DNA of 61,930 bases, counting the filler, from Hausera hauseri (taxonomy: Eukaryota), in NCBI GenBank assembly GCA_046269625.1. It is 12 parts of 12 records of this genome, joined end to end, with 100 filler letters (N's around TTAATTAATTAA, not from the genome) between each part and the next. Parts side by side here need not be neighbours in the genome. Positions count along the whole stretch, not along the records: positions 38,155 to 42,843 come from JBJURY010474577.1; positions 42,944 to 47,829 come from JBJURY010403034.1; 10 more parts are not named here. One strand, written 5' to 3'. Within the stretch, counting starts at the first letter, position 1, and every line of letters begins with the position of its first letter. This document shows, piece after piece, positions 1 to 53,241 of this stretch. The position numbers and the translations under genes are program-made. The notes under the pieces were generated by a model that saw only the letters and a program-made list of their open reading frames with translations, made no database searches and was not told the DNA's origin.

Positions 1-19
1 ATATAAGACTCTCTGTGAA

Positions 20-1290: not shown

Positions 1291-1299
1291 ATGAGCAGC

Positions 1300-21800: not shown

Positions 21801-22459
21801 CTCGGTCTTTGGCAAGACGATGAAGAATATCCGTAACAGGATCAACATCGAGCTAATATGTAACTGGAAGCGAGCAAAAAAGCTTATTTCCAAGCCTAAC
21901 TCCTATAGCAGCACCATATATACGGAAAACTTGGTAGGCATCCATATGCTAAAAACATCCTTGGTATTCATCAAGCCCATATATGTGGGTATGGCAATCC
22001 TCGACCCGTCAAAGACCCAAATGTATCAATTCCATTAAAATATAATGGTCCCCAAGTTCAAGTCCATGCAGCTGCTGTATATGGATACTGATAGTTTCAT
22101 CTATCAGATCCATACAGATGATATGTATAAGGACTTTGCCCAATTGGCTCAACACATGGATACCTCGGACTATCCAAAGGATCATCCAAATTATTCAATT
22201 GCCAATAAGAAAGTTCTTGAGAAATTCAAAGACGAGGTGAATGGGGCAATATTATCGAGATTTGTGGCTCTCAGATCTAAAATTTATGCCACTCACATAT
22301 GTGGTCAAGTAAAGAAGCGGGCAAAAGGGGTTCAAAGGGCTGTCTTAGCCAAGAAGATCAGTTTTCAGGACTATGTGACAGTTCTGCAGGAGCAGACTTA
22401 CATCATATCGGAAATTAAAAGGATCCAATCTAGCGATCATAACATACAAACTGTATTCT
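18804..22459 (+). pseudogene. Protein-primed family B DNA polymerase (pPolB) of a Polinton with N-terminal region and endonuclease-VII-like insert; frameshifted and truncated by the contig end
   Basis: VYCDFEAIL ExoI; CNLC..VRDHCHFTGKYRGAACNNCN insert; HNLSGYDSHF; DSFRFM; YLDANNLY motif A; KLYNNSVFGK motif B; YMDTDS motif C. Confidence 0.95.
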
Positions 22460-22559: not shown

Positions 22560-22740
22560 CTCGAGGAATTAACTATAGGAATAGATATAGAGTAGACTTT
22601 GAAAAGAATGACTCTACTGAGGCATATTATTGGTCCATAATACTGAACATGGGACTTTTGAATAAAAATATAAATAATGGCATCACCATGGATGACTTCA
22701 AAGAAAATTACCCCTTCTTTACATTTGTTCGAGCACCTGG
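22560..22740 (+). pseudogene. Polinton major capsid protein C-terminal fragment
   Basis: AYYWSIILNMGLLNKNINNGITMDDFKENYPFFTFV.AP shares NMGLLNKN(I/V)NNGI(T/S)MD with the capsid fragment at 56790-57310. Confidence 0.7.
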
Positions 22741-23289
22741 TGTCGTTCCAACGATAATTTCAACAATGTTAGAGTATATGAGAGTAAGGATTAGACGACT
22801 TTATTATTTGAAACTCAAAACCTGCCAATATTCAATATTTTCTATAAATCAATCGTATTTACAAATTCCATTTTTTAACTAAGAAACAATATATTGTCGA
22901 CATTTCTCATTCAAAAAAAAAATGTTCCAACAAATTGACGAGAGTAAAATTATAAGCACACAAGTATAAAGAAATCCAAATACATATTTTATGGTGTAAA
23001 ATTGTCAGGAAAATCTTCACAATGATTTCTAAAAAAAATAATAGCGTCAACCAAAATTTCGATTCAATACATTATGACGACGATTTAGCCTTTTGATTCA
23101 AATTTATGAATCGACTGCAGACGACATCATTCAGAACATTGCATTTATTTCTAATTCTTATGCACATCGCATAAATAACAATATTCTTTGGAAACATCAT
23201 TCGATCATGTTGTCTCACTGAAAGTCCAAATAGTCATTTGATCTAACTTATACTCATTAACAAAAACGTCGAAGAAACAAAAACTGGAA

Positions 23290-26200: not shown

Positions 26201-28439
26201 GTGCCATCATTTTTACTACTACATGGAGAGGAGAAGCCCACGGTGAATTCGATTTCCGAATTATGCCAGACCTTTCCAGTTCATTAAATTCCTGTTCCAC
26301 AGCTTCACGTCTGTGTAGCGACAAATGTCTGACCTTTTGTTTGATCGGCCTCTGATGCTCTGTTACTATGTGATGATAAGTTGTGGATGGACGCTTGAAG
26401 TTGACGTCCCTTTAAACTATGCGAAAGCAAGACGTTGTGACGTATGATTTAAGATTTGAGTCTAGAGACAAGAATGAATGAGGTATATCATTAGACAGAA
26501 CAGCCCCAGTGATTGACGAAAAACAACTGGTATCGCTACTATCGACGCCTATTTGGATTTTTGTTTTAGAATAGATTTATGATTGTCGTTCATAATTGAA
26601 ATATTACCGACTTTATCGGAAGTTTTTTTATAGATGACGAAGCGTTCAACATGTTCACAGATGAGTGCAATGAATTGCTCGCTAAGTTGTTTATGAGACA
26701 CATATTTGGAGTTGCAATCGAGTTCCTGCTTAAAAAACAGCCGTATTTGCAATCGACCAATAGATCATGTGCGGCAAGAAAATCTGAGCCTATTATGGGA
26801 GATTTAATGTTGGTCACGTGGAACTTCCAGATAAACTTATCTGGCAAGTTGGCGAATGTGAAAGTCAATTCCGTGGTTCCTGCAACGTGCAATGGTTGAC
26901 CACTAGCAGTAAAAAGCGGTGGACAGGAAATCATAATCGATGTAGGAACGAAGGATAAAAAAGGAGCGAAAAGGCAGCTTCTGAGTCTATAAGGAAGTCG
27001 ATATGTGAAGTATCTCTGCATAACAGTGCAGCTTTAAACAGAAAGACTGTAGAGGCGGTGTTGAAACGGCCAGAAGATTGAGCGATATTGACTGCGCCAG
27101 AATGTGCCGTAAAATCTGGCGGCATTATTAGTTTTTTGAGGGATTTGGAAAAAAGGAAGAAGAGAAAGAAAAACGAGGAGATTTATCGTTGTAATGTTTA
27201 CAACCAGGCGCACATGATCTAGTCTGTGACTGAAACTTATTGTGATAGGCGCAAATAGGGTTGTCCACAGCGTACCGTTCGCTGTAGAACCGACAGGCCA
27301 AAAAGCATTTCCTAGCATATCTTCGAAATCGCGTGTGATAGAAGCAAGTCATGCATCCGCCAGGTGAAATGGATCGAATAGAGTGTTTGGAAAAGCTTCT
27401 CTCTATTGAAGGCCTGGTTTTACTGCGTCGAGGCCCATTAAGATTATTTAGTTGGGTAGTAATGGCCGAAATCGACTGCTGTAACTTGTCAAACTGTTGC
27501 TGCATCATTTGCAATTGTTGAGTATAAAATGTTGTGTCTGTAGTTGGAGCACATATGGTTGCAGCCGCAATAGGGAGAGAACTGTTCTTATATAGAATCT
27601 CAAAGGATTTGTCAGCCATTATTGCCAGTTTTTCGATAGCAGTGGATTCATCGACAACGGTTACTAAAGTTCTGATTGAGGTGGGAAATGATGACAAGAA
27701 ATAACGGCGAATTAGATCCGCGTTATTCGTAGGTGTCACTTTTCGAGTGCTAAGCTGCAGAATGGCCGTTTGGAGAAAATCGGATTCTGTTGGTTTCCTA
27801 TCGCGTGGTCGTTAAAATACTTTTGTATTATGTTGTCAATCGAAGAATCCGTGACATGCAGTACAGCTTAACATAGTGTTTCGTAAGGTATCGAGGATTG
27901 TAGCAGCTCGGTGCTATTACTAATCTGCTGCTTGACGTTGGCACGCAGAAGGATTAAAAGACTATTGGCTCGCACAAAAGAATCAATGATGTTCGATTTT
28001 AGCCACTGTTGGTGGAATTGGAGCCATAGTTTGCTGGAGTTGTTTTTGTCGAGGAAAAATTCCACACTAGGTAAATTTAACGAACCTCGTGACTGTTTGG
28101 AGTGTGGCAAACGGTAGACGTTGCCTGTATTTGTGGATTTGTCATCCGAGAAGGATAGATTTTGATCCGATCCACCCCGAAGGCGAAAATGGAGCATAAG
28201 ATGGATAACTGGACGTTAACAGCAGACGAAAAACAGGAGTGAGTCAACAGGATGTACAGTGATACCTCGATATGTGAAATAGAAGTTAGACATGTTGAGT
28301 GCGGAGGATAAAGAGGTGTATAACAGATGCTCTGTGGCGTTGAGTGGAGCTTTAATGGTTGTTGTGAGGAGGAATTCAGGCAGCCAATATAAAGTGAGGA
28401 AATTCATAAGAGGAGGAAAATAAGGTTCATTTACTGATT
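23290..28439 (-). mobile_element. Ty3/Gypsy element 2 (Ubl-Gag-PR-RT-RH-IN, Ser/Pro tail, PPT, LTR start), decayed
   Basis: Gag with CFYH.RF..YA..C and CAYH.KF...C motifs; FLIDS protease; YIDD; integrase ORF 23575-25074; PPT GGGGGGG then TGTGA at about 23418. Confidence 0.93.
28171..28407 (-). pseudogene. Ubiquitin-like leader (79 codons, one in-frame stop, ending RLRGG) in frame with the Gag of element 2
   Basis: MNFLTLY...MSNFYFTYRG...FVCC*RPVIHLMLHFRLRGG|SDQ; ORFs 28216-28407 and 27868-28197 are in the same frame. Confidence 0.7.
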
Positions 28440-32945: not shown

Positions 32946-33324
32946 AGGAAATGGTTAAACTGCGGAACCTCTGGGAGGTTCTACGGCAAGATTTTTGTTC
33001 TGCGTTCAATCTTCCCTCATATGTACAAGATTTTCCCACATCGACGGTGACATTGTGACAGAGGGAGTCATCAATGATGAAGATATTCTTCAACAAGTCC
33101 GAATTGAGAATGACGAGGGCGATTTGTCAGCACTGCGGTCAACAAGTAATACCGGAGATTATACCTGTCGCAGATTTAGAAACTGCTCTGGCGCAATCGG
33201 CATTGAAGCGACGACGACGAGCCACTCCGAATGCTTTTTTATGAAACCCTGCTTTAACGAAACCCTGTTTGAATGAACATTTTCTCTATACCCACACTTT
33301 TTGTTAAATCGGGGTTAGACTGTA
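32946..33324 (+). mobile_element. pogo/Tigger transposon 3' remnant with TIR and TA target site
   Basis: Acidic HIDGDIVTEGVINDEDILQQV tail; terminal GTTAAATCGGGGTTAGACTG-TA. Confidence 0.6.
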
Positions 33325-33989
33325 AAAAGATCCTTCAACTTATTCGAAATGCAAATTTCAATGAAATGCTGAACATTTGAGATATTTTGTTTCTTGTACC
33401 CTTTTCACACTGAAGTTCTATCAAATTTGATTTTCAATAAAAAATAAAATTTCACGTTGGTGACAAAATAACCATTATGAAACCTATCAGAAAATGATTA
33501 AGATTTTCAGTCATTCTAATATCTTTCTTATTTCGATAACTACATGAAAATATTGAAAAATGTTGACAGAATTCTCATCATGTGTTAACGAACTCCAAAT
33601 GTAGAAAAATTATTAAAAACTGAATTAGAACAAAACCTACCTCAAAAACATCCATGGTATAGTTGAAGAAAAAAATTTAATAATTAATAAAAAAATGTTC
33701 AAACAATACTACATTACTAAAAAGTTAATAAAAAACAAGAACAACCCGGGTATATTATTAAATGCAAATGTGTATGTATAACTGTGGTTTGGCTGACGCA
33801 CCGGACAAATTTCCGTCAGATATGAAACTGACCGATATCTCCGAGAAACACGCATGTCTTGTAGAACTCCTCGCAGGTAAATCACATCTATAGTGAAATC
33901 CATAGAATATATTGAATTTAAATTCGTCGTCTCCATTAACAATTTATTTACCACAACATTTTAGCAACTTACACAAAACATTATCATTT

Positions 33990-36900
33990 ACGAACATATC
34001 TGTCTTTATACACGGTGGAAAAATTTCCTCATTGATCCGTTAACGCCTCCCAGTACAACCAAAATGCTTTTCATAACAGACATTATCGACTTATTTATAA
34101 ATATTACAGGTACTACATCACCCCCATGGCAAAATTATGACAATAAAGAAAAAAATAAGCGTAGAATATCGTAAGAAAAGGAAGAAATTGTACCTATTCG
34201 GCTTTGGTATGTCATACGCTGTAGATCGCCTATGAATTTCTCTCTACTGTAAGTACTAAATGTCACTTGGCGTGACCTACTAGATGTTGCTGGTGCTTTC
34301 GGAGTTGTTTGAGGAAGAGATGTTGTAGAATTTGTAGCATTTTGGGTAGATGTTTTGTGAAAAGGTGAAAGTAAAGTAGAAGCTGAAAAGGGAAGGGGAT
34401 TAGGCGACTAGAGATGGAAGGCGAGACTAGAGATGAAAGTGAATCACGCGATGAAGGTGACGTGAGTAGTGGATGTACAGGCGATGACGGCAAAGTAGGT
34501 AATGAAAGAGCAGTAAACGATGAATGAAGTGAAAAGAATTGATTGTGACACGAGAGTGATTGCTGCGACGGAGCAAAATCATCGAGGAAATTAGATGATG
34601 GCTTGACAGGAATGAAGATAGAGTTGATTTTTAAAACAAAGTTGTTATCCTGGTTATCGTCAACGAAGAATGCTGGCTTAAGATTGGAAATATGTACAAA
34701 TATGTATATTTCCTTACGTAAAATGGTAGCGGTGTGTGAAGAAAGGTTGAGCAGTCTATAAGTGCCAACGTACTGAGGCCGAAAATCAGAAGGCGACTGA
34801 TCTTTCAGCCATACAAATATGACTGAGTATAAATCCACTGAAATATACGATGTCTTTATTTATAAGGCGACAATAGGCGTTTGTGCTAACATCAACAGTG
34901 TGACTGTGCCGCACAAACAGCTTCATCTGACGGACTTTTGTCGAGGCCGGAAAGCTCAAATAGGACACGAATTGGTGTCCCATAGAGAGTCTCGGCTGGA
35001 GCATAACCTGTGGTGGTGGAAGGCGTGTTACGCCAACCGAGTAAGACAAAAGGAAGAATTGAGGTTTAATTGTGATGATTGCTTGAGAAGATTTTAAGGA
35101 GATTTTCATGGTATCGTAAAATCTTTCAAAAAGGCCATTTGCTTGGGGATAGTACGGTGTTGTGTGGAAATGGATTATCCCCGCGTGCTTTGTCAGGGAT
35201 TTAAAAAGATCAGCTTCTAATTGCTGACCTTAGTCCATTATAATGTGACGCGGTGAACCAAAGAGGCTGATCCATATTTTAATAAAGTAATCTGCTACGG
35301 AATCAGTATTGGTTGATCGAAGAGGAAAAGCCTCAGGCCAGCAAGAGGTACGGTCCATTATAGATAAGATGTACTGATAACCGTTGTGTGATGGTAAAGG
35401 ACCGACAAGATCCAAGTAAACGATGTCGAAGCGAGATGTACAAGGGAAGTGGTAAAGTGGTGGTTTGAGGTGTCTGTGGACATTATATTGCTGACATGCT
35501 ACGCATTCCTTGACCCAAACTTGTACATCTGTACACATAGTTGGTCATACAATGTGGCGCTGAAGTAAGCAAAACGTGGCCTTTGAACTCGGATTATAAA
35601 GAGAGTGAAAGTTACTGAAAGCTGTCTTTTGTAACGATGGCGCAAGAATGATTTTTTATTATTCAAGTTGGAAGTGTCGTAGACGATGCCATCGATGATC
35701 TCAACATATTTAAAAGCCTGGAGGATATCAAATGATGGGTGGTTGCTTTTCAGGATTTCAGAGGAGAAAATTGGCTGAATGGTAATTGAACTGACCGACC
35801 GCGACAGAAAATTTGCTACCAAATTTTCGGTGCGTGAAATATATTTTATAGAAAAACTAAATGTCGATAGGTTTGATATCTGTAGTTCTTGCCTGGGTGA
35901 TGGATGTTTTAACGCCATGATATGCATCAGCGGCTTATGGTCGGATTGAATGACAAATTGACGAGATAGAAGCAAATGTTTGAAATGCTTTACCTCCAGA
36001 ACTATGGCTAGTAGCTCACGGTCTAACGTTGAGTATCGACTTTCTGGTTGTGTAAGCTTTCGGGAATAGAATTCTAACGGCTCATCGACACCATTATATA
36101 TTTGGTGTAATATCGCATCAGTGGCTGTGGTGGAGGCATCGGTAATTAGTATGAGTTCCGCGTTGGGTTTTGGAAATGCCAATATTTAAACGGCTTTTAG
36201 ACCTTCATGAAGGTGATAAAATTGGTTTATTAGATCAGGAATCCAGCGGATTAGTTGTCTTTTCTTACCGGATGAGAAATATGCGAAAGGTGCCGTTAGT
36301 TCGGAGCAGTGTGGCACATATTGGTGTACGAAATGTAATGTCCCTAGAAAACTCCTTATGTCGGTGGTAATTGTTGGTAATGTGACATTTTTTAACTGTT
36401 GTAAGCTATCAGGCTGGGCGAATGACCATCGGGAGTAATTATGTGACCTAAGAAGTTGACGCGTTTCTGGAAGAAATTATATTTGGAGAAATTAATTTTC
36501 AGGTTGCTTTGATGCAATCTGTGGAAAATAATTCGGAAATGCTCATGATGTTGTTTGATGGAGTGGAAGCGACTAATATGTCGTCTATGTATGGATGCGC
36601 AAACTCAAGACCTGAGAGAACGGTATTAATGTGGCGTTGAAAGGTCTGAGATGCGCTACGTAGGCCGAAAGGCATAAAGGTGTATTTATAAAGGCCAAAT
36701 GGTGTCATGACAACAGTTTTTGAAATGGTAAAATATTTATTGGCGTTAATGAGGCTATGAAGGATGTCCTTAATGAGGGATAGTGGATAAGCATCTATGA
36801 TAGCCAGGTTGTTTACTTGACGATAATCGCCACATGGCCTATAGGTACCATCTTTCTTTGCTACTACATGAAGAGTAGAAGCCCAAGTAGAATTTGATCT

Positions 36901-37040
36901 CCGAATGATACTAAAATTTTCAAGTTCATTGAATTCCTGCTCCACAGCTTTATGTCTGAGTGGAGACAAAGGTATGATATTTTGTTTGATAGGCCTCTGA
37001 TGTTCTGCTACTATGTGATGATAAATTGAGGATGGATGTT
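33990..37040 (-). mobile_element. Ty3/Gypsy element 3 (RT-RH-IN, tail, PPT, LTR start), same family as element 2; gag and PR absent
   Basis: Collinear with 23400-26390; YIDD, ITDAS, YLDLVGPLP; PPT GGGGGTGA then TGTAG at about 34117. Confidence 0.9.
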
Positions 37041-37679
37041 GTTCTCTGTCATTTTGTTTTCTTTGAACAATGGAATGTCATTTGAATAGGCAATTTCTGT
37101 TGTCATACTCTCTAAACTATTCTGGAAGTAATGTTTCACCGATAAATTCTTATTTAAACTTTCATTCAACGAAACATTATCCAACGGATTACGGACGTGA
37201 TGGGATTGGATTTGAGATAAATTGAAATGGGGCAAATTGTTTTCGCATGACTGTTAGAAAACGCTGCACAGTTGGATAATATTACGTCATTATCGGCAAA
37301 GAATATTGGGAAATTATTCTCGGATATTATGCCCAACGAACCGGAATCCGATAGAACCGTTGGTGTGTTAAGTATCTCCGAATTATCAATCGAGAACCTG
37401 GGAATTTCTGGCCTGGGAATTTTGGGAGTACGACCGGAATGTATCGAACCGAATGATAATAACTCGTCGACGGTTAATTCCTTGAATGATTTTTGTATAT
37501 CCATTTAATTACAGAAATATTAACAATTAACAAAAATAACTACATAATCATACTCTCCTACATTGAAAAAGTCGATAATTTTCAAAATACCACATTATCT
37601 ATTGAATATTAAAACACTTATTTAAAATACAAAATGTTTTATATACAAGTTACCGATTGGGTAAATGTGGGCAACACAC

Positions 37680-38054
37680 TGAGACTCACTGCAAGCGAAC
37701 CATTCGAGAATAGCTACATTGACATTTGCGGACCTTTAAAAGAAACGTGGAGGAAAATATATATTGGCCATCATAGACCAGTTTAGTAGATATATTTCAC
37801 TATCGGCAATAGCAAAACAGGACGAAGTAACAATAAAAAGACACGGTGCTAAAGACTTGGATTCGCAAATTCGGCGCACCGAAAGAGATACACACAGATT
37901 GCGGAGAAGTATTTGAATCTAAGGTATTTAGAGACATGACGGCATCAATTGGCATCAAGATGTGCTACTCGAGCCCGTATCATCACAACACCAATGGAAT
38001 AGTAGAAAGGGAATTCCGGACAATAAGAGAATATATAGGTGCGACTCTCCACGA
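37680..38054 (+). pseudogene. Unrelated Gypsy integrase core fragment
   Basis: IDICGP, IIDQFSRY, FGAPKEIHTDCG.VFES, SSPYHHNTNGIVER.FRTI. Confidence 0.85.
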
Positions 38055-38154: not shown

Positions 38155-38560
38155 GCACTATTATTTCCGAGCGCGGTGGGATAATAGCATCATCTATCAG
38201 TGAGACGGCCTCTTCGTATTTCTTCTCATTAAAATATCTAAGTTGACCTGTCTTAACGTCAATGTACACATCGTCTAATTGATGTAATACGTCGCATCCT
38301 AATAATATTTCGTTGGTTAGGTTCTCGGCTACTCTTATAGTATGCTTTATCACTTGACCACCAATTTTAATCTCGGCCTTTAAAACCATCTTTATCTCTT
38401 CTTCCATTCCAAACGCTCCGACATTAATTAAGGTTTCTTCGAGCCTTTGTAGCATACTTTTTAATTCTTTGGGTATTTGACTCCTTCTCATGATTGTAGT
38501 TGTTGAGCCAGTGTCTATTAAGTCAATTAATGGATGCCCATTTACTTCTTTTTCTATCTC
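38155..38560 (-). CDS. Retropepsin aspartic protease (partial polyprotein)
   Basis: VNGHPLIDLIDTGSTTTIM ... IRVAENLTNEILLGCDVL. Confidence 0.88.
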
Positions 38561-38968
38561 TGGTCTCGTATATGATTGAATTTCACTTTTAGAACTCACC
38601 TTACATGTAGTTTCATGTTCCTTTTGTATAAGATTTTTATCATAATCTTGTTTTATTCTTAGGATTTGATACGTTGGATACATTACCCCATGTCTTACAT
38701 ACTGGGGGGCTGAGGGGTTTATTGGCAGGTGGTCATTATAAACTTGCCTGTGGTACTCATCTGCGAGATTCAACTGAGGTAAGTCGGTAACTAGCTTCCT
38801 TCGATACTTTTGATTGTGATACTTCAATGATAATCTTTTTAATACTTGGATATATCTATTACTTCTGAGTCTCGTGTCTACATTGTCCTCGTCGCCTCCT
38901 CCATTCAAAGTTCTGTAGGGCGTATAATCGTCAGCTTTACCACTTCCTTCGTTAGTTATTTTCTTTTT

Positions 38969-40827
38969 TTACTTCGCGTCATGATTTGCTAGAAAACAAC
39001 TAGCTACGGCCGGTATTACGGCTATAAGGATTTTCCACGAACAACCCACTGCTGCATGTATTCCATATGCCTTACCTAGTGCTGTAAATATTGTTCGTAA
39101 GGCACTAATACTAAAATATATTGCCAAGAATCCCGATGCTGCCTGTCCGAAGTATAAAAATTTGCCCCACATTTTTTCCATCACATTTCTTGTAACCTTC
39201 TTCAAATAATCTTTTCCCATTAGATTTTCCCAATGTGGAGAACCTTCCCCGTCCCACATTACCTTTCTGGTTAGTTCTGTTATTATTCGTTGTCTCTGTT
39301 GAGGAAATAATAACATTCTTCGATAATCTTCTAAATTCTGTTGCGTATAAATGCCTCCTTGTAAAATGCCAGTTAGCGGTTCGAATTTTTGGTTCCTTTG
39401 TAAGTTGATCAAGCTTAAAGTTTCCGGTTTTGCTACTTCTTCTCGTTTTGGCATTCTAAACCACTTATCATTTATCTTGAACATAGGTGACATATTAAAC
39501 GTACAATTGTCGAGTTGCGTCGGTCTTGCTTTGGCGTCTAGTAATATACGGGTTACTGGTATTACGTATCGAGGTTCCATATTGTAAATCACTGGTAACT
39601 CTGAGGTACATTCTTCCGATTCTCTAATCGCTACCTCTACCTTTTTGCATTCAATCGTTATTAACACTTCCCCCATTACTTTTCCAATTACTCCGTCTCC
39701 AAAAGGCATAACCGGGGCCACCATGTCTGGGTTTGTTATCACCAATGCCATTTTATTTCGTATTATTTCGAAATTCAATTTACATTCGTTTAATATTATT
39801 TCTCTATATAAATTTCTTATTTCTTGTCGGACATAGTTAATCAAATAGTCTATTTTATTATCAAAATATTGTGTTACTTTGATAACTTTCTTATCTATTT
39901 TTGTTTTTGCTTCTGCTACCTCTCTCGATGAGAGATATAGTCCTTTATAATTAGTCATAAACATTTCTTCATTGCATTTATTAATTGTCCCTTTGATCTT
40001 AAATCGCATCATCTCTTCAGGGTTCTGTGAATATACTATTGTTTCTACTTCTGTCATTTTTACTTCTTTGACCCCTTCTCTATAAGTGGCTGTTTCTTTT
40101 TCAGCCTTTTTCCCCACTGTCTTATTAAACTTACCTTCTTTTAACAGTGTCGGATGACATCGGCTCGAAGATATTTCTTAAGTCATTTTAGATTCTCCTG
40201 TATCGCACTCTCCACTTTCGTATTCGCATTCATTCATTATTGTCATGAGTCTCGTTTGGGAATCGAACAATCCTTCGTATTCTTTTAACTGTACCTGATA
40301 ATCTTTGATTGCTACCGTCCTTGGAGCTATTGTTCCCACGACATCGTAATCTACTCCCTTACACGTACCTTCCATGGTTTTGTCTATTCTCCCCGCTCGA
40401 AAAATCCTAGTATACTTTATCTTTCCTCTTACGGCTGGTATCTGAGCATTCTGTACTGTTATGACCCCGATTTTAAAAGCATCTTGACATTCAGCCCGCG
40501 ATATTATTATTGGCTCAAAAGTGGTCGTGGGTTCAATAATTGCTGAATTTCCTGAGTAATATGCGCAATTAAATAAAAAAACGACTTCTTTACATAACAT
40601 TCTCGTATCTTAAATTATCTCGTATCCGACTCCTGGTATACACAATACCGATGACCGCTGGTTGTTGTTAATTGTTCTGGGTCCGCTTCAGGGCATTTTT
40701 CTAAATCTATTAGTGAATACTTTTGTCCTTCTTTTGGCTTTGAGCAATCATAAGCCACCATTCCCATGGCTTTAGGCATGCATAGTGATGCTATAAGTAA
40801 TATCTGTAATATTTCCATAAACGACAT
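38969..40827 (-). pseudogene. Chuvirus-like (gB-related, class III-type) envelope glycoprotein with signal-like N-terminus and C-terminal TM; two stops and one frameshift
   Basis: Hydrophobic ILQILLIASLC, then MVAYDCS...YSLIDLEKC; GEVLITIECKKVEV.IR...ECTSELPV; PVTRIL; C...SPMFKIND.W; GGIYTQ..L..YR..LLFP; WGKFLYFG...G.LAIY TM. This is the motif series I recall for Chuviridae G and its endogenous copies. Confidence 0.8.
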
Positions 40828-43689
40828 GCCTCCGAGACCATGCTTATTAATACCAGGTTGGGTTGCAGTTGGTCTCTCTGGTATTTCTCTTTCCGATCTC
40901 AACCTGCCATTCATTAAACTAGGTATCCATCTTTCCCTGCATTGTACCCAGTTTTCTAAAGTATCACGTAGAATTTTAACAGTGGTTTTTATATTTCGTT
41001 CAATTTCCTCCAGATTCTGTGTCTGATAATTTGTTACTATTACTTTATATATCAGATAAGCTATCGCCGTAACAACTTTTTCTCTAGTGATCCCTGTAGC
41101 AAACATCTTCTCTAATATATCCTGTTCATGTAGTTCGTTAATTCGTTCCTCATTAATGTTTTCGTAAAATTGTCTGCTAATTCTCAGCATGCTATTCCGT
41201 AGCATCTGAAATAACTCATTGGGAATAGTTATCTGCATATCAAATAATCCGAATGACGTATGAAGTTTGGCTAATAATGTTCTTAACAATGGATCTATAT
41301 CTACAGATTCTGGTGTCGTATCTGTTCCTGCCAATAATAGTCGTCGTACAATTTCCTCGTTTCTATCCTTTTTATTTCTAATGTCACTTATCTTTGTCCC
41401 TTTTGGTCTTCCTTTTCTTCGAGCTTCTGTCTGTACCGTAACATCTTGATTATCAGTGAAAAATGGTCCTTCCTTTTCCTGAGGCTCTACCTCTCTTATT
41501 ATTTCAGCTATCGTTTCTTCTGCTCTTACATCGGGGTGTATTGCGGTTATAGTGATCGGATTATAATTTCCGCTTCGACACCCAATTCTTAATAACTGGT
41601 CATAACCGTATAATGTTCTGCCGAAGAAATTCAACCCATAGACATTTTCTTTATAAAATGGCTCCAGTTCCTCCATCTTTTCTCGTAACGTTAGCACATC
41701 GTCCGTCTCATTCATTCTAATAACTCTTATGTCCTGATTTCCTTCCTTTAGTGTTATTCTTACCGCCTCATTTCGCTCCCTTTCACCTTCTGCTGTTTTA
41801 GCTAATATTGTCCTTGCTATCTCTCGTACTGGACTACTGTCATGAGCTAACAGTAATAATTGGAATAGGATCTCATTTACTTTAGCTATTGCTACTTTAT
41901 TATCTATTAGTTTTAATATTGTAGTGGTGGCCTGATTGACATCCCTTATATTTTCGGGGTCGATGGCCACTACTGCCTGTATGATATCGTCTTCAGCATC
42001 CAAATCTACTTCTATGTCGTGTATCACCTGTTCTATGACGGTTTCGTCAAATGTTTTTGCAGGTGCTTTTTCTTCTTCTGATGTTAACTCCTCAGGGTTA
42101 TTTTTCTTCCGTCCCTTTTTCTTTTCCGTATCACTTCTTTCAGTAGAGGCTTCTCTTGATTCCGCTTCTATAATTTTCTTATTGCCTTTCTTTTTCCTGG
42201 GCTTTCCGCCCTTTTGTTTTTCTTCCAATACATAAATACCATTTTCTCTTAATCTTTTTTGTTGGGTCTTATAATCTTTCAACTCCATTGCTAGCTGAGT
42301 CCTCATTCGTTGCGTTAATACACTATTAACGTAATTTACATTTTCTTTCTTTTTATCTTTATACTCTTCGTGTTCGTCATCCTCCCTTTCATCTTTATAG
42401 GAAGACTCATCCGATGTTGCTGAGGTGTAATCTTGCTTATTTTCCTTCTTTTTGTCCTTCGATCTGGTTTCTCGCTTGCGTGACCTACAAACCTTGGCTA
42501 TATGGCCATACTTGTTACAATTGAAACATTTTAACCTGCCCTCTGAATCTATACTTGGCAACAAACGGCCATCTTTAGTGGGATACTTCTTTGACTTTTC
42601 CCCATGGTTCTTTAGTTTGAATCTTACTTTTTTTCCACATCTGACTCAGCCTCTGTAGCTGACGTTTGTGAGGGGCTTCGGTTAATATCGTATCTCTGGT
42701 ATTGTTGTGTACTATTATTTCTTCGTTTATAATTGTTTGTGCTATCTTTTGACTTGGTCCATTTACATAACTCGGCATCCCGTTCGGCTTTTCTGGCCTT
42801 CCTGATTGCTTCTTGAAACGTGGAAGGGTCGGCTTGTAATATGNNNNNNNNNNNNNNNNNNNNNNNNNNNNNNNNNNNNNNNNNNNNTTAATTAATTAAN
42901 NNNNNNNNNNNNNNNNNNNNNNNNNNNNNNNNNNNNNNNNNNNAATCCCGTATGTTATTTCGTCATTGACTGACAAGACTTTGTCTTCTAAGCAGAGTGC
43001 GTTTTTATCGTAACATCGACCAAATTCCAAAACTGAAACTTATGGAGAAATCCAAATGGGGGATATTTAACCCAAATTCGATTATAAATTTATCTGAAGA
43101 AATTAAGAAAAAGAAAAGTGTCATTAAACGTCTATGTAATCAGAAATTGAAAGCAAAATGTGAAATAAAACCCATATTGAAAATCGCTGTGAATCTAAGG
43201 AATCGGATCATCAAAGTACCAACATCACCCCATACCTCGCTATATTATGCTCTATATGTAAATGTTATTTTCACGCACAAACAGAATGTTAAAAATGAAA
43301 TTATTGTTGCAACTGTCAATCTACTACAGATGATCGAAGAAGTTGAAGAATTTCTTGAGTGGACCCACAGAATTGTGAATACAACTAGAAGTGTTATATG
43401 TTCAGAATCGGAAAATTTTAGTGAGAGGTCAGTGAAGATTATATTTGAAAAATTATTAGTCACTGTTAATCAAATTATTCAGGAAAATAACAAAACTGTC
43501 CGTGAGCTTTTAGAAAGCGATGTTGCAGAAAAGTTGTGTTTTCTGGAAGAATTGCGTAAAGAACGTCTATCAAATTTACGGCAACAAAATGAAATTGATG
43601 GTCTCAAACGTCTCCAGCCAAATGACATGCAACATACGAAATGTTTATATTGTGGAAAACCGAATGCTATTGCGCAATTTCCATCAGAA

Positions 43690-46600
43690 CAAACATTTCA
43701 GTCAAATCCAATAAATGATTCTAGTGAAAAAAGTAAATTCTTTGTTACATTTCCATATCCATATATGAATGGTATTTTACATTTGGGTCACGGATTTTCA
43801 TTATCAAAATGTGAGTTTGCAATGGGATATGAAAAGCTAAAAGGAAAAAATACACTATGGGGATTTGGCTTACACTGTACTGGAATGCCTATTAAAGCCA
43901 GTGCAGATAAATTGACCAGAGAAATGAAGGAATTTGGTTTCCCTCCAGTTTTTCCAGTAGAACAAGGAAAACAGGAGATTATGGGTAGAAAAAAAAGTCG
44001 TTGCCAAATCCGGTGGATTTAAGTATCAATGGGAGATTATGCGTAGTAACGGTATGACGGACGATGAAATTGTCAAATTTATCGATCCATTGCATTGGCT
44101 CCAATATTATCCTCCACTTTGTATTGAACATTTACATAGGATGGGATTGAAGGTTGATTGGCGCAGATCATTTATTACAACAGATGCAAATCCCTTCTAC
44201 GATTCATTCGTACGTTGGCAATTTTTGCGATTGAAGAAAGATAACAAGATTATGTTTGGGAAAAGAGAAACAATATTTTCACCATTGGACAACCAGCCGT
44301 GTATAGATCACGATAGACAGACGGGCGAAGGAGTCGGACCCGTTGAATACACTCTGATCAAAATGCGATTACTAGAGCCATATCCACTTGTATTGAATGA
44401 TATCAAGGAGCCAGTTTATTTGGTTGCAGCAACTCTCCGACCAGAAACAATGTATGGCCAGACAAATTGTTGGGTAAATCCCGACATTGAGTATTCACTA
44501 GTCCGATCTGAAATCCATGGACTTTTAGTTACCGTTCAACGCGCAGCGCGAAATATGGCATATCAAAATATTATTTCCGAATCCCATAATTCTTATAGTG
44601 TTCTACGAAATTTCGAAGGCAATCAACTAATTGGTGCAGCTGTCAATTCTCCACTTTGTCAATATGAAAAAATTTATGTTTTGCCAATGATGACGATAAA
44701 GAAAACCAAAGGAACCGGTGTTGTTACTAGTGTACCCAGTGATTCTCCGGATGATTATGCTGCATTGTTGGATGTTAAGAACAAAAAGGCCTTACGACAG
44801 AAATATAACATTACCGATGAAATGTTAATGTCATTTGATCCGGTTCCCGTTCTACGAGTACCCGGTTTAGACAAGTATGACGATCAGTGTGCTAGATGGT
44901 TCGTGGAGCAGGCCAAATTCCAAAGCCAAAACGATTCGGAAAAACTCGCGAAAGCCAAAGAAGATTGCTATAAATTGGGATTTTACAAAGGTCGCATGAT
45001 TGTCGGCAAATACAGCGGGAAAATGGTCCAGTATGCCAAAGAGAAAATCCAAGCGGATTTAATTATTTCCAATGATGCTATTAGGTATTTCGAACCGGAA
45101 AGTCAAGTTATATCGAGGAGTGGAGACGAATGTGTCGTTGCCCGATGTGATCAATGGTATCTCAATTATCAGGACGCCGAATGGAAGGCACAGGCTCGAC
45201 AATGTTTGGCGCAGTTGAATACATTTTCCGATGAAGTTCGTAAGAATTTTGAGGTCAATTTGGAAAACCTCCATGAGTATGCTTGCTCGAGATCGTACGG
45301 ATTGGGAACAAAGATTCCCTGGGATGAACAGTATCTCGTCGAATCGCTGTCCGACTCTACAATATACATGGCCTATTATACAGTTGCCCATATGTTCCAG
45401 GGGGCTTCATTGGATGGACGAGCTCCATCGAATGATATTGGAATACGACCATCAGAAATGACAACTGATTGTTGGGAATACGTACTGGGCAATGCGTCAA
45501 CAGTCAGTGAATCAATGAAAGAAAAACTGGATACACTGCGCAAGGAATTTCTCTATTGGTATCCAGTCGATTTACGAGTCAGTAGAAAAGACCTCATACC
45601 AAATCATCTCACGTATTATCTATACAATCATTGCGCAATCTGGCCGAATAGTCCTCAACAACATTGGCCGAAGAACGTCCGTGCCAACGGCCATTTATTT
45701 CTGAATAACGAAAAAATGTCGAAATCAACGGGAAATTTCCTGACAATCATCGATGCCATTGGGAAATATTCCGCCGATGGAATGCGATTAGCATTGGCCG
45801 ATAGCGGTGATGGAATTGAGGATGCGAATTTCGTGGAGAAAATTGCCGATTCCGGATTGTTGAAGTTGTATAACATGATCGATTGGATGAAAATTCAATT
45901 GGCAGACATGGATAGAATGAGAAAGGGTCCGTTGACGTTGCATTGTGCTGTCGTATTTGATAATGAAATGAATCGACTGATTAGAGAGGCTGACAAGAAT
46001 TATGCTGACATGCATTATAAGAGTGCGGTAAAGAATGCATTCCATGAATACCAGAATTGTAAAGACCATTATTTGAACGTATCCGATGGGAATGTTCATT
46101 GGGATTTGATAATGCGCTTTATCACGACTCAGTGTCTAATTCTGTCACCAATATGTCCCCACATTTGTGACTATCTACGGCGTGAAGTGTTGGGCAATAG
46201 CAGTTCCATAATGTCGGAGAAATGGCCCACATCAAACCCAGTAATAGATGCCATTGTTACAGAAGCCAATTTCATTCGTGACTGTGCATCAGAATTCAAA
46301 AAATACGTCATAGTTCGTAAGGAAAAGAAGCAGAAGTTCAACAGTGCCATTATTTGGATCGCTAATGGATACCCGGCATGGCAATTGGCAGTCATTGAAA
46401 CGATAATTACCATGGCAACGGATATAGGATGTCTGCCGGATAACAAGGAACTTAGTAAACGATTGAAGGAAATTCCAGCGGTAAATGATAAGTTTAAAAA
46501 GGCGATGGATTTTGCTGAAATGTTGAGGAAGAAGAGAGAAGGAAACATTGACAGCTTGAGAAAAATGCGCGAGCCGCAAGTTAACGAAATGGAATTGATC

Positions 46601-47046
46601 AGGTCCAATATGGAATATTTTGAGAGGACTATCGAGGTGGAGCCAGGTCGGTTGATCGTGAAATACAGTGGAGACGCCACGGACAGCAATATTCGGGATA
46701 ATTGTTGTCCGATGGATCCACGTATTACGGTCAATGATGATGAACGATCATCAGCTGTTGTTCCAGCAATCAACAAACAATTGTATTCAGGTGGACTGAC
46801 TGCACATGTGGTTGTTGAGGATGGAGACAGTGGTGTTACCATAATTAAACGAATTGCAGATGACATGGCCATAGGAGGTAGCGTATTGACTGACAATCCA
46901 TTAGTAATTCTGTTGTAGATTACAAAAGGATCAGCTTATTTACCATGGATAACAGGCCAGTTGATAGATCGACATACTTCACCGTTGTTAGAGATGCAGT
47001 GAACATTGGCAAAACACCAATTAAGTCACTGAGATATGATGTCTAG
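43690..47046 (+). CDS. LARS1: Cytosolic leucyl-tRNA synthetase; one frameshift at the A-run 43989-43996, predicted 41-nt intron 46878-46918, native N-terminus missing
   Basis: [70 protein letters not shown] editing domain, KMSKS; removing the GT..AG intron opens a last exon ending RYDV*. Confidence 0.93.
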
Positions 47047-47929: not shown

Positions 47930-49690
47930 TTGCACTTTATCTTTCTGGTTTCATCTACTTCCATCGGTTCATGTTCGTTATGTTTCTCATATCTCTTGAC
48001 CTGTTTATTTTTCACTTTCCATTCAGGTTCTTCTGGCCTGTATTCTCTACTGCTTCCTCTTGTGTACTGTCTACCATCTCTACTTATTGTTCTGCCTTTT
48101 AACGTATCATGTCTTGGTTTCATATCTGTGTACTGTCTTTCCTCATATATATATCACGTTTATCCCTGTTTCGTATGAGTTCTCTTTGCTAGCATCTGGG
48201 GTGTGTAGTTCGCTTCTGGTTGTAGGTTCTATACCCATCATACTTGGTACCTCTTTCTTTGATTTGCTTCTTGGTTAAAGTACTGTCTTGTGATGGTCTT
48301 CTAGTTTTTAGATTTTGTATTGTCTCATCTGTACATTGCTTGTTTCGTTCTACTTTTGTTTGATAAAATGCTTTGTCATGATTATTGACTTTTCTAATTT
48401 TGTTTGTCTTGGCCATCGAACTATTCAATGTGGCCCTTCCTGTGTTCCTGCACTGTACGGACCTTGCTAAACAGCAGGATTTGTGTTTCCCTTCTTCTCT
48501 TGATCTCTGTTTTCTCTGTGTTCATTATTACATTTCGACAAAATTTCGTGAAGTGTCCTTCGTTGCCACACTTGAAACATCATTTGCCATTTGTCATTCA
48601 CCCTGTATCATCTATTCTGTATGTTCTGCTATGACATTCTTTTGCTATATGGCCTTCCTAACATCGAATACATTTCTCTACTTCATGTATAGATCTTCTG
48701 TGTCCATGTCATTTCTCTCTGTAGTGATCATGTTCTGTGTGTCGACCATGCCATTTTGGTCTGTAGTGATCAATATCCATGTGTTCTTCACTTTGATCAT
48801 CAAACTTATCTCTTCCTAGTCTGATATTGATACGTTTCCCAAAATGTTCTTCATCGAAAGCATTTTGAATTGCATCTTGAATAGTCTTTGGTTCCTCTTT
48901 CATTAGCTGGATCTTGATGCGTGTGTTTCGTAAACCGTTGATAAAAATTGGAGTTAGTGACTTCCCAATTTCTTCTGAAATGACATCTTGACCAACATAA
49001 GCATCCTCCGCCATATTGAGAAGCTTGTCACCATACAATTGCGTAGCCTCCCCTTTTTCTTGCCTGATCTTTCTCAGTGTTGCAATCGCATACTGCATGT
49101 CATTTATCTCTGCATACATATTGGCGGGTTTCTTTTTGAATGCCTCTTACGTTTCGTCTGGGTGTGTCTTGAATCTTCTTCGTACAAAATGTACAAAATC
49201 ATTTGCCAGCTCGTCTGTAGTCATATACGGCAGTTCTTTTTTTCTTCAGTTGTGGCTTTGACCATATGACTATATTTCTCTATCTGCGATAGCCATGTTT
49301 TGAACTGTTTAGTTTCTTGCCCATTAAACGATTGTACAAATGTCCGTATATTCTGATGCTTACTATTGAGGTCAACTTTTGTGACCATTGTCTCGATTTT
49401 TTCCAACGCTTTCCTCACAGGGTCATTTCTCCCTGCCAGTGGTTTTACTGGGTGTGGTCTTCCTTCTCTGACTGGTGTCTGACCTCACGCCTGCAAACTT
49501 TCAAGCTTCTTGCACACTTCTTCATGTGCTGCATTTATTTCTTCATTACTGATCTGCATGGCTGTGTTATTTGCCATCATGGTGTCAAGCTGATGCTGTG
49601 GTATTGCAACCATTCGCTCACCCATTGCCGGATTTCCTATGGTGTAACTTCCACTTTCCGTCATATTGTCCGTAATACTGTTACTCAAAT
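47930..49690 (-). pseudogene. Gypsy Gag (capsid plus several zinc knuckles), decayed
   Basis: FNG...KQFKTWL..IEK; L..IRQ.KGE..Q.YG.KL; FINGL...IK..L...PKT.QDAI; HMDID and EPMEVD motifs; CFKCGNEGHF.KFC. Confidence 0.85.
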
Positions 49691-50145
49691 TTAAAACGAA
49701 CTGTTCGTAATCAATGATTAAGTATGGCTAAATCGTTTGAACACACGATATTTGGCCTCTCTGACTAGTATCTCCGTGTAGTTTCCTCGAATTTCAATTA
49801 ACACAAACCGTAGAATATTCCCCACAGCGCTGGGTAATTTCCGTTTCGCTGATGAATATAGAATCAACAATATGCCACACTCATTTTATTGTGTGACAAA
49901 CACAAACCAACAACTTCGTAGTTTCCTTATAGCTCCAACACGTACGAACAACCTGATGGTTACGTAAAAGAAATCGTTGCCGTAAGGACATACAGTCCCT
50001 TTAGCTCTCTCATAGAGCGCAGCTATATTTTGTTATGGTGGGTGCTATAACTAAGCCATGGCCACATGGACACAAAGTCCATCCACTGTCAGAATGACAT
50101 CCTCACAGCTTGCGGATTTCGATGAGAATGCCCCATTGATAACTT

Positions 50146-50330
50146 CCAAATACTTTTTGTAGGTAAAACCCAAGCCACTCCTTTCTTTTCTTGACTTCCT
50201 GTCAATAATCTGGCACTCCCAAAACAATTTCGGCCGCTAAGTTTCAAATACTTTTTGTAGGTAAAACCCAAGACACTCCTTTCTTTTCTTGATTTCCTGT
50301 CTTTAAACTGGCACTCCCAAAAACAATTTC
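50146..50330. repeat. Tandem duplication of about 100 bp
   Basis: CAAATACTTTTTGTAGGTAAAACCCAAG.CACTCCTTTCTTTTCTTGA.TTCCTGTC...CTGGCACTCCCAAAA(A)CAATTTC occurs twice. Confidence 0.9.
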
Positions 50331-50829
50331 CGTTTTCCTTGCATGAGTGTTCATTGTGGCTTTTTTGTAGCTAGCTTGTTGATGTCTCTTTCTAGTGTTG
50401 CGGTCCTTCTATGGCGCTTTCTGACTTTGCGGTCTTTACTCTACGACAACACGCCCGTTTCCCAATAAAAGAACATTTTTTCTACTTCTGTAGACAAAAT
50501 TTCTTTCTCGTCTCCTGTAGTTCACATGTCGGCAATCCGCCCTTTACCCAATGAAAAAGTATTTTCCATTGCTTTGCATTCAGTTGAAGGGATGTTAATA
50601 ATGTGCTTCATCATGTCTTTACATTGTGCATTGTTCGGTGGAAATGGAAAATATTTTCCCGGTGTTCACATAGTGATAGGACTTCGACTTTCTGGAATGT
50701 AAGCTTCGGTTATACAGTCTTGGTGTCTCGATATTCCATTTACATTTCATTGGCTGGGTGTTCGCCTGTCTCTGCTACCTCATTTTGCTTATCTTCTGTA
50801 GCGTTCTTTTTCTGTGCAGGTTGATGAAA

Positions 50830-51330
50830 TTCTTCGGTTGAGCATAAACATTGTGCCTTTAAATACAATCACTGCTATGAAGATCATGATACTAATGTTA
50901 TTTGTGTTACTATCACCGTCTAAATCTCGAATTGTCTGAAAATGTTCTAACTCATTGAGCGTGTCATGATAGTTGATCTTTTCTATGTCTTTCAGGTGTG
51001 TTGTGGCTTGCTAAAGTTCAACTTCACACTGTAGGCTGTTGTGTTATCTTCAAGACAGTTCCATTACTGTAAACGGAGGTATGTTGTGTTTTCTCTCCTT
51101 ACGAAATACATTTGTTTGAAGCATCAATCTGGCTCTGGTTAATTGCGCTTCGATGTCATTCAACTGACTTTGAAAAGTGATTAATGATTGAATAATTACT
51201 AATCTCCTATGAGCATGTACAGTGTGTACACCTTTGATTTTCACAAACATCGTACCATTCGTCTGTAACGATTTCTTTCTTGGTCTGAGTCGATTTGGCA
51301 ATGACCGCACATACTTATGCTACTATCATT
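50830..51330 (-). pseudogene. Possible internally deleted env remnant downstream of integrase
   Basis: NGTMFVKI.GV......RLVII..L resembles F-type env N-termini; hydrophobic ISIMIFIAVIVF near the end. Confidence 0.4.
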
Positions 51331-52579
51331 TGATAGAACTGCATCGTTACTTTCCGGTTTTTCCTGTGGACGAATATTGTTCAACCGTATTATGATTAGG
51401 GTAACTTCAGTACTGTTTGCAACAACAATTTCATAACGCTATCTTCTTTCATGACTTTCTGGTCTTCTGCTATAACGTCGTGTCTACTTTCTGCTTCCAT
51501 TTCCACTGTATTTATTGTTTATCTTCGTTTACTGATAGCTTGATTCGCATGAGGGTGTCTCATATCTATCTGATTTACCTCAGCCGTAGGGTCTCTTCTG
51601 CTGACTGTATCAGTCAACTGTTTCCCAAGTTTCGTTATCATTGCAGTTTTCTCAAATTTTGCTTCTTCAATTTTGCCCACTTGATTTTCTAAATCTCGTA
51701 TAATTGCATCAGTTTCGCACACTTTGCATTGAAGTTCATTTACTCGTTTATCCGATTCTTGTTTTGCTTCTGTAAGCTTTTCCCCAATTTTACGAATATC
51801 TTTCATTTCTCTATCCTTTTGCTCTACTGTCGTGTGTATTTCGGCTATCTTGGCTTCTATTTGGGTTCTTGCTTTTTCTTGATTCTTTCTGACTTCTTGT
51901 ATCCGTGTTGCAATATTCTGTCATTTGGTTTTCATGGCTGTGCTTATAGGTATTCGTGATTCTTTTTGGTCGGTATCTTCAGTTTTTCTAACATATTTCT
52001 TTTGTAAAGCTGCTTGCTGGGTGATTTTATTTCTGCGTTCTTCTTCGGTAGAAGTCCCTGTATCTCGTGTTCTCTTGGCACTTCTTGCTATGTGTTCCAT
52101 TTCACACGTTTCTGTTTCTGAGTCTTCTTCAACAACTGTGTCGGAAGAGTGTGCTTCTGACTTGCCTAATGTCTCTATCTTGCAACCGTCTCCTCCATTC
52201 AGGTATTTGTAGATCACTGTCTTCAGATGAAGTTTGTAACATATTTCTGGATCGCTTCATTTGTCGAGCTTTAGCTTCTTCGAATCTCCGTCTTGCTTCT
52301 TCTCGAGTTTTGGGGTATGACTGGCTTGTATCGGACTCAACTCTTTATGTTGGTGATTCTGCTTTCTCACTGGTCTTTGAGGTTACTCTCAGTGGTACTG
52401 GACCTATTTCATACCTGGTATCGCTGTCTTCATCATCCGATGTCTCACTACTTTCTTCTCTTGATAATTCTGTTTTATTTTCTTCCGGTTGTACTACATA
52501 TCTAGTTTTTCTGAACTTTTCTCTGGCGTGTACCCATGGTTCATTTGACAATGTCCGATCATCTCGTCGGATGTAGTCT

Positions 52580-53241
52580 GTTGTTGCTGTTTGCCCTGTG
52601 TATTGGTTTCGGACAAAATAGTTTACTGGTCCACGTTGTTCTACAATCTTGTACCCTGGAATCCATAGATTGTCAAATTTCGAATTTCTGTGCTGCTTTC
52701 TATAGCAAACTTATCGCCGATTTCAAAATTCTGAGGTATCGTTTTTCGGTCGCTTCTTTCTTTTCTTTTCTGGAACGCATTTCGAACATTCCTGCTGACT
52801 TCGACCATAATTTCATGCTGCTTTTGTAGCATATATTTGTCATATTCTTCCCCATGGTACTTATACTTGGGTTGTAGCATATTGTCTAATGGTAGGATCG
52901 GCTCTCGTCCAAATATCTTTTTGAATGGCGAGTGTCTCCGGCTACCATTCTCCATAACTCGGACTACTGTGGCTGCTTGGTTCAAATACAGATCGCATTC
53001 TTTGACTTGGTCATTGACATACTTGGCTATGATGTGCTATAACATTGTGTGTTGTCTCTCGTTAATACCATTCGCTCCTGGATTATAGTGTGCTGTTCTT
53101 ACCTGCTTTATATTAGTTCTCAAAGCGTGTCACTTAGGGCTTTGTTAACGAACTCTGTGCCTCTGTGCCATTATCTGTAATGACAACTTTTGGGCAACAA
53201 TACCTGGGTATGAACTGTTCGACTAGTATACCCACAATGTT
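52580..53241 (-). pseudogene. Gypsy integrase core end and GPY/F region
   Basis: PRYCCPKVVITDNG; HSPFKKIFGREP.LP.D; FEIGD; KFDNLWIPGY.IVEQRGPVNY. Confidence 0.85.

Follow-up and report, generated by a model that had tools for sequence, protein, structure and literature searches.

A probable Burro-like GAG-ENV-POL retroelement with a chuvirus-type glycoprotein in Hausera hauseri

Elements with env between gag and pol

The closest described system is Burro (GYPSM1), a giant gypsy element of planarians. In the portions of its description drawn on here, a single ORF (ORF1, 4,873-5,140 aa) contains Gag with two to three CCHC knuckles, a Ubi2/SUMO-like domain (PF11976), a BCL2-like domain, an in-frame env that matches mononegavirus glycoproteins, and a protease, as well as MATH, BIR, ankyrin and Smc domains (PMC6431247). 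Burro is also mentioned in PMC13238120. HSV/gB-type GAG-ENV-POL errantiviruses have been recorded in Nematoda, Bryozoa and Platyhelminthes in the parts of PMC13524379 covered, where nematode endogenous retroviruses with ENV before POL are also cited (Sacco et al. 2022). A search of that paper's text does not find the terms 'in-frame', 'single ORF' or 'fused', and the portions covered note no accessory Ubl or Bcl-2 modules.

The gag-env-pol order of the Hausera hauseri locus described here is real but already published; the initial annotation had not recognised an architecture that is present in both papers (PMC6431247, PMC13524379). The contig copy is a compact relative of the Burro-like layout. 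Compared with the published description of Burro, as far as covered, it shares Gag, Ubl, BCL2-like domain, Env and protease in one frame (PMC6431247). Env lies in frame between gag and pol in relatives of the contig copy, which is itself colinear but broken, and the Ubl and then the BCL2-like domain directly precede env, as judged by concordant sub-threshold calls. In contrast to Burro, the spacer between knuckle and signal is only about 555 aa, one knuckle is seen, and Pfam finds no MATH, BIR, ankyrin or Smc match in the spacer at E<=0.1. There is no giant ORF, and the element is therefore filed as Burro-like, not as Burro. With the gB-type errantiviruses, in the portions covered, it shares the position of env between gag and pol, a chuvirus-like Env, many copies and, in relatives, a Ty3/gypsy-type Pol (PMC13524379). 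Intact, near-identical multiple copies would be expected of that group; the many copies found here among contigs of a public run (X1) are diverged, and the contig copy is broken.

Env also occurs after pol, for example in P0069, where DUF5641 precedes Env, and in P0148, where Env follows IN; both fall outside the Env clade of the contig copy. Nematode endogenous retroviruses reportedly have a continuous gag-env-pro-pol ORF, and mosquito BEL/Pao elements are said to carry chuvirus G (Dezordi 2020); the name Anakin is in use for such elements. The latter use the same glycoprotein family and differ in being BEL/Pao.

The contig copy and its modules

The window, the whole stretch of DNA analysed, is 61,930 nt long. 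The retroelement copy fills one entire contig in it (38155-42843; 4,689 nt, JBJURY010474577.1), flanked by artificial N spacers and coding on the minus strand in the order Gag end, CCHC knuckle, signal, class III glycoprotein, TM and DTG protease. It is an internal piece: no LTR, PBS, RT or IN is found on the 4,689 nt. Further contigs of the window have gypsy elements of their own, likewise decayed, and none can be tied to this copy. LeuRS on a neighbouring contig has much the same identity, 49-51%, to sequences from arthropods, molluscs, annelids, priapulids and vertebrates, and 57% to its best match, a protein without a name. From these identities the host reads as a fast-evolving animal of unplaced phylum, and the contigs may represent more than one organism. 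The features of the copy, all on the minus strand, are as follows.

42627..42842, minus: Gag capsid-like region, end only (truncated by the contig edge), in a different frame from the next ORF
42487..42528, minus: CCHC zinc knuckle (nucleocapsid), PF00098 and CX2CX4HX4C by direct reading
41782..42009, minus: HEAT/solenoid-like module of four helices, low-confidence model (pLDDT 40-53)
41530..41766, minus: ubiquitin/SUMO-like domain (Ubl), Atlas and three-row profile
41404..41442, minus: VQT then RGRP motif
40900..41295, minus: Bcl-2-like helical domain without the BH1 WG motif, by Pfam, profile, Foldseek and VIA
40762..40827, minus: internal signal sequence by hydropathy, with a predicted signal-peptidase site, ahead of the conserved AYDC start of Env
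38972..40761, minus: class III envelope glycoprotein (chuvirus G/herpes gB-like), by PF24664, AF2 and Foldseek
38987..39169, minus: membrane anchor, with a first hydrophobic segment at about 39169-39077 and a second, shorter one at 39043-38987
38969..38971, minus: TAA between Env tail and linker, open at this site in relatives and in loose ends of related copies
38570..38968, minus: variable in-frame linker from Env to protease, open frame
38156..38569, minus: aspartic protease and the first strand of the domain that comes next in relatives, truncated by the contig end

Four breaks interrupt the reading frame. A frameshift near 42630 separates the capsid end from the knuckle ORF, so that these two do not share an ORF as initially proposed. 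The claim that one ORF continues into signal and glycoprotein holds from the knuckle to the signal-like stretch beginning at Met 40827; the glycoprotein is interrupted twice, by a frameshift near 40615 and by an internal stop at 40180-40178. The fourth break is the TAA at 38971-38969, after the glycoprotein TM. It is indeed the one stop at that place, and past it the same frame runs on without a stop to the contig end, over 271 codons (probability by chance about 5e-10, given the composition of the contig), but it is one of four breaks in the copy, not the single one first described.

No Pfam Gag match is found at 42627-42842, and the putative capsid call derives only from a small home-made profile of four Gag segments, which scores 14.8 bits; none of 500 shuffles reaches that value, the highest being 7.9. 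The knuckle noted in the initial annotation is borne out by its motif and by PF00098 (E=8.5e-4; 19.8 bits, slightly below the cut-off of 20.8).

Three domains overlooked in that annotation lie between knuckle and signal. The HEAT-like, Ubl and Bcl-2-like calls are each under curated thresholds, but those for Ubl and Bcl-2 are concordant. The HEAT-like module matches the symplekin HEAT with a VIA Z of 8.9, in a range common for helical repeats, and a segment resembling it is present in P0009 and P0014. The Ubl has Atlas values of 0.90-0.92 to PF00240/PF11976 clusters, the top match being a cluster without a name, and with its three-row profile UHRF1/RAD23A Ubl make up five of seven matches (best E=0.014). 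Kinship of the helical and Ubl segments with P0009/P0014 comes from a three-row alignment at 19-20% identity; phmmer with these segments against 151 proteins gives nothing. The VQT and RGRP motifs, putatively LC8-binding-like and AT-hook-like, respectively, recur as a pattern in P0007, P0008 and P0009 (3 of 10 relatives scanned).

The Bcl-2-like domain matches PF00452 below the cut-off (E=5.8e-4), and its four-row profile finds Bcl-xL (E=2.6e-4). All 40 of the Foldseek matches listed belong to the Bcl-2 family (best E=0.021), and VIA aligns 109 residues with Mcl-1 (Z 8.3, rmsd 2.9); the Atlas value of 0.88 serves as a lead only. The model is consistent, with moderate confidence (pLDDT about 60-70), with the Bcl-2 helical fold. 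The WG of the BH1 NWGR/TWGK motif is missing in all four rows, and BH2 GGW is retained in three of four, the contig copy being the exception. This domain is found in only three relatives; in the contig copy, P0001, P0005 and P0014 its end is 28-59 aa from the h-region of the signal. The accessory-region model as a whole (mean pLDDT 44) has no Foldseek match at E<=0.001, and the region (aa 190-640) has none at E<=0.01 among 2,994 shorter-protein candidates.

A hydrophobic h-region lies 16-23 aa ahead of the AYDC motif in all 11 proteins examined. Five of the 11 have no Met within 15 aa ahead of it, so that in those proteins the signal is internal. The contig copy and 5 of 10 relatives do have Met codons right ahead of the h-region. 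These would suit a route in which most Env comes from a spliced or subgenomic RNA that begins at a Met near the signal, the in-frame fusion playing a minor part; Drosophila errantiviruses as a rule use a spliced env RNA. Such a route is unlikely to be the main one, given the proteins that lack this Met and a Gag-Env-Pol frame that stays open in relatives of 30-40% identity.

Identification of the glycoprotein as a chuvirus-G/gB-like fusogen proved correct. PF24664 (Monjiviricetes_fusion) matches it by Pfam in three successive pieces (E=1e-3, 2e-6 and 1.3e-67), none of which has a furin motif. The AF2 model of 40609-38972, with X put at the stop, has a pLDDT of 85 and finds chuvirus G (E=8e-33) and gB (E=8e-9) by Foldseek; TM-scores against gB reach just 0.23-0.27, since the domains of the monomer model sit differently. 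Signal, gB-like ectodomain and TM, the parts of the gB-type GAG-ENV-POL Env, are all present. Of the two anchor segments, the first has the higher hydrophobicity in all 11 relatives, while in the contig copy the second outscores it (1.92 vs 1.55), so that two membrane passes are possible.

The protease has its LIDTGS motif at 38521-38504 on the minus strand and is matched by PF13975 (E=1.6e-8) and PF00077 (E=1.3e-7), with the RT-proximal protease of P0007 as best match (E=5.5e-14). About 40 aa follow before the contig end, and this stretch aligns to the post-protease segment of P0007 and P0044; a dUTPase-like domain, expected of Burro between PR and RT, has no Pfam match in relatives at E<=0.01. 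A CCHC knuckle and a retropepsin DTG protease are as expected for Ty3/gypsy (Metaviridae), a status that rests on relatives with 28-40% Env identity: the order PR-RT-RNaseH-IN is present in P0004, P0007 and P0035, and the contig itself stops in PR.

Relatives, other copies and the TAA

The Env clade of the contig copy includes 13 relatives, of which 10 have Env and a DTG protease in one ORF; four of these also have RT and three also integrase. For example, P0004 has knuckle-Env-PR-RT-RNaseH-IN within 2,627 aa, and a single colinear tblastn HSP between it and the contig runs from 40567 to 38156, spanning both stops. One of the ten polyprotein relatives is listed under a Flavobacteriaceae MAG, as a hypothetical protein, and is probably mis-binned animal DNA. 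X1 comprises 8,362 contigs across 30 of 30 bins, mostly less than 95% alike, with many diverged copies; the contig is not covered from end to end by any single piece of X1 or X2.

The contig could in principle be a chance chimera, in which an endogenous chuvirus G, or else a second, nested element, came to sit between a gag and a protease unrelated to it. Standalone chuvirus-like glycoproteins make up most of the 150 matches listed (a cluster look-up of ten gave virus names for none), and depth falls in the linker bin 38783-38939, to 112 in X1 and 0 in X2. This origin is extremely improbable, being contradicted already by the single-ORF relatives and by colinearity with P0004. In a tree built by a quick method, with no named chuvirus among the sequences, the contig Env joins the polyprotein Envs (SH-aLRT 100), and the standalone and pol-env forms lie outside this group. 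Composition is even along the contig, which has no internal repeat >22 nt. Two X1 contigs bridge the Env-protease linker, with shorter linkers.

The TAA might instead be a programmed read-through stop that reduces Pol relative to Gag-Env. Gammaretroviruses have such a stop ahead of PR, P0005 and P0014 also terminate soon past the TM, and no substitution at 38969-38971 appears among the 40 of 1,331 rows listed (of the internal Env stop, 40180-40178, only one position is represented among the substitution rows listed). Against this stand the ten open clade members, the three further breaks in the same copy, and loose ends in X1 whose consensus sequences, built from 18 and 9 contigs, are open across the TAA place over the 8-9 codons shown, as judged by eye. 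A read-through stop is accordingly very unlikely. Because related copies from the public run are open there, the TAA is most likely a decay mutation of the contig copy, neither a read-through stop nor the edge of a nested element. With single-ORF relatives and P0004 colinear across the TAA, the initial proposal of one Gag-Env-Pol polyprotein, not nested, is upheld.

Proposed processing and significance

The contig very probably represents a multi-copy LTR retroelement of the Ty3/gypsy type, here in a decayed copy, that belongs with the Burro-like, gB-type GAG-ENV-POL elements; this reading takes in the processing steps given here. Intact members would encode one polyprotein, Gag(CA-NC)-HEAT-like-Ubl-Bcl-2-like-signal-Env-TM-linker-PR-(RT-RNaseH-IN). 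Order, folds and single-ORF relatives are observed; processing and topology are inferred. The internal signal would insert into the ER, with Gag staying cytosolic, and signal peptidase would release the N terminus of Env on the lumenal side. Transfer would stop at the first hydrophobic segment and the second would lie in the inner leaflet, leaving PR-Pol in the cytosol. The element protease would separate Gag, accessory modules and Pol. The cleaved signal may remain as a C-terminal membrane anchor of the Bcl-2-like module, and Env trimers may permit budding and cell-to-cell spread in the host.

A more ambitious and rather unlikely proposal is that these elements form a compact lineage apart from planarian Burro, in an animal group without a reported GAG-ENV-POL element. 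One signal would translocate the fusogen and then tail-anchor a retroelement Bcl-2-fold protein that, at the membrane where budding occurs, controls innate signalling or the death of the host cell. Some relatives would also have, after integrase and within the one ORF, a second membrane protein of type I. If true, a flavivirus-style membrane-threaded polyprotein strategy would operate in a reverse-transcribing element.

With the order known, the value of the find is modest. No treatment of the ER threading or cutting of such a polyprotein was found in the literature searched or in the parts of PMC6431247 and PMC13524379 covered. The contig copy and its 13 relatives present the Burro core in compact form outside the giant planarian elements, with Ubl, Bcl-2 and Env in frame ahead of Pol, and their small natural ORFs offer material for tests of the ER threading and cleavage of such a polyprotein.

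Gene order, glycoprotein fold and decay

Among the 12 short eukaryotic contigs that, with artificial spacers, make up the window, the element fills one (38155-42843, 4,689 nt), with even base composition and no repeats longer than 22 nt within it. Five open pieces lie on the minus strand, separated by four breaks.

Features of the element
42842-42627, minus: capsid-end-like piece, scoring 14.8 bits with a profile of 4 Gag rows; none of 500 shuffles reached that score
near 42630, minus: frameshift between the capsid-end piece and the 676-aa piece
42645-40618, minus: open frame of 676 aa with CCHC (42528-42487), signal from 40827 and glycoprotein start
near 40615, minus: frameshift within the glycoprotein
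40609-40181, minus: open frame, second glycoprotein piece
40180-40178, minus: stop within the glycoprotein
40177-38972, minus: open frame, third glycoprotein piece
38971-38969, minus: TAA between glycoprotein and protease pieces
38968-38156, minus: open frame, protease piece, LIDTGS at 38521-38504

Taken in order, the three glycoprotein pieces match Pfam PF24664 at profile positions 3-55, 82-207 and 246-601 of 653, and the protease piece matches PF13975 and PF00077. The order Gag end/CCHC, signal, glycoprotein, protease proposed in the initial annotation is borne out by the open pieces and Pfam, although its "single TAA" was too mild for a copy broken by two frameshifts, an internal stop and the TAA.

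A 546-aa glycoprotein stretch, with X at the stop, was modelled from a 104-row alignment (pLDDT 85). The best viral Foldseek matches are chuvirus-type glycoproteins, e.g., of dermapteran chu-related virus 142 (E=8e-33) and Tacheng tick virus 4 (E=3e-29), at 18-20% identity; after these come glycoproteins of the xinmo-, qin-, nyami- and rhabdo-like kinds. All PDB matches listed are herpes gB, with E=8e-9 at best and TM-scores of 0.23-0.27. The fold places Env among the class III fusogens of chuvirus G/gB type, in line with the chuvirus-type envelope first claimed.

Accessory modules and proposed membrane threading

Overlooked at first, the knuckle-to-signal region holds a weakly supported four-helix module, a ubiquitin/SUMO-like domain, a VQT-RGRP motif (also in 3 of 10 relatives) and a Bcl-2-like domain. 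The last matches Pfam (E=5.8e-4) and, searched as a profile, Bcl-xL (E=2.6e-4); all 40 Foldseek matches listed are Bcl-2 family (E>=0.021), and VIA against Mcl-1 gives Z 8.3 (rmsd 2.9, 109 aligned). The accessory-domain tests are concordant, though each falls below its curated threshold. The Bcl-2-like domain recurs in three relatives (P0001, P0005 and P0014), always ending 28-59 aa ahead of the signal's h-region. All four Bcl-2-like domains lack the BH1 WG motif, which casts doubt on canonical BH3 binding; it is as likely that they act like the Bcl-2-fold signalling inhibitors encoded by poxviruses.

All 11 proteins examined have a hydrophobic signal ahead of a conserved start of Env, and in 5 of them no start Met lies near the signal. 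The first C-terminal hydrophobic segment is the stronger in 11/11 relatives and the weaker of two in the window copy. Following established ER biology, the internal signal would insert into the ER with Gag kept cytosolic, signal peptidase would release Env, and the first C-terminal hydrophobic segment would halt transfer; Pol would remain cytosolic, and retropepsin would cleave the rest. Once cleaved, the signal would stay attached to the Bcl-2-like module and act as its tail anchor, which cellular Bcl-2 proteins carry at the same place. Gag, Env and Pol would be equimolar unless splicing or processing steps in.

Relatives and other copies

A library-wide search with a 402-aa glycoprotein piece gave 1,010 matches (150 listed); Pfam scans covered 21 of these proteins, chosen for high rank or length, and a quick tree was built from 69 of the 122 matches covering at least 290 aa. 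A branch with SH-aLRT 100 sets the window Env and 13 relatives apart from the rest; the grouping is partly circular, since it was the highest-ranked and the long matches that received the polyprotein label. Nevertheless, P0035 (rank 35) falls inside this clade, and higher-scoring standalone glycoproteins and the env-after-pol forms P0148 and P0069 fall outside. Env and protease share one ORF in 10 of the 13, with RT as well in 4 and integrase in 3; the remaining 3 stop at or before the TM. Gag or a knuckle lies upstream in the same ORF in P0002, P0004, P0009 and P0011 (two by Pfam, two by eye). A single HSP links P0004 to the window, running from 40567 to the end of the contig across both stops and the linker, and the closest match of the window protease is P0007's RT-proximal protease.

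P0004 (HBK71150.1) is a full polyprotein running from knuckle through Env to Pol; its record calls it a hypothetical protein from a Flavobacteriaceae MAG, but the DNA is probably animal and mis-binned. Two or three DTG protease-like repeats stand in tandem behind Env in P0001, P0006, P0007, P0008, P0009 and P0011, and P0007 has another beyond integrase. Beyond integrase, in the same ORF, P0004 (2254-2560), P0007 (2486-2740) and P0035 (2780-3200) carry a second signal-like segment and TM, possibly a second type-I membrane protein; these tails have no detectable mutual likeness and no Pfam match, and those of P0004 and P0007 show an FN3-like motif by eye.

Related sequence is present in two public runs. 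In one, X1, 8,362 contigs fall on the element's stretch, covering 30/30 bins and mostly <95% alike; none spans it whole. Loose-end consensuses (18 and 9 contigs; 38979 and 38988) are open by eye across the TAA place, with few codons shown. Contigs crossing the frameshift places, of which there are two, differ in length there, two connect the Env side with the linker through shorter spacers, and read-run depth is low in the linker bin. Together, these copies and the single-ORF relatives indicate a diverged multi-copy family in which the breaks of the 38155-42843 copy are decay.

Host and standing of the element

A neighbouring contig's cytoplasmic leucyl-tRNA synthetase, ~50% identical to every named bilaterian among the matches listed, points to a probable fast-evolving animal as host.

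Other contigs of the window
1-4759, plus: Polo-like kinase and NEMF-like frames, broken (by eye)
7725-8288, plus: lone dUTPase-like ORF (by eye)
9064-17361, 22560-28439 and 32946-38054, minus: three decayed gypsy elements, related to one another and carrying RT, RNase H and integrase; the latter two are ~80% alike
17462-22459, plus: frames like protein-primed DNA polymerase B, broken; Polinton/adintovirus-like by eye
42970-46918, plus: the synthetase, apparently intronless, its start in a different frame, with a break near 44000
47930-53241, minus: integrase end, a coiled-coil frame whose tail is hydrophobic, ~1 kb of non-coding DNA containing a 98-nt duplication, then Gag (Ty3_capsid E=8e-4); A-rich, like the element studied, this is one element's 3' end followed by another's 5' end

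PMC13524379, which cites Sacco 2022, describes GAG-ENV-POL elements of the gB type from Nematoda, Bryozoa (10 rows of supplementary file 1) and Platyhelminthes (9 rows) as not monophyletic, ties the glycoprotein to Chuviridae and argues that the env-pol association is ancient. The window element has their gene order. By domain order on the contig it also has the Ubl-Bcl-2-Env arrangement of Burro, the giant gypsy elements of planarians, but lacks their giant cargo. The element is real, ordered as claimed and decayed, a compact addition to an already reported kind. If true, the dual use of one segment as signal and tail anchor, together with a new host phylum, would make it more notable.
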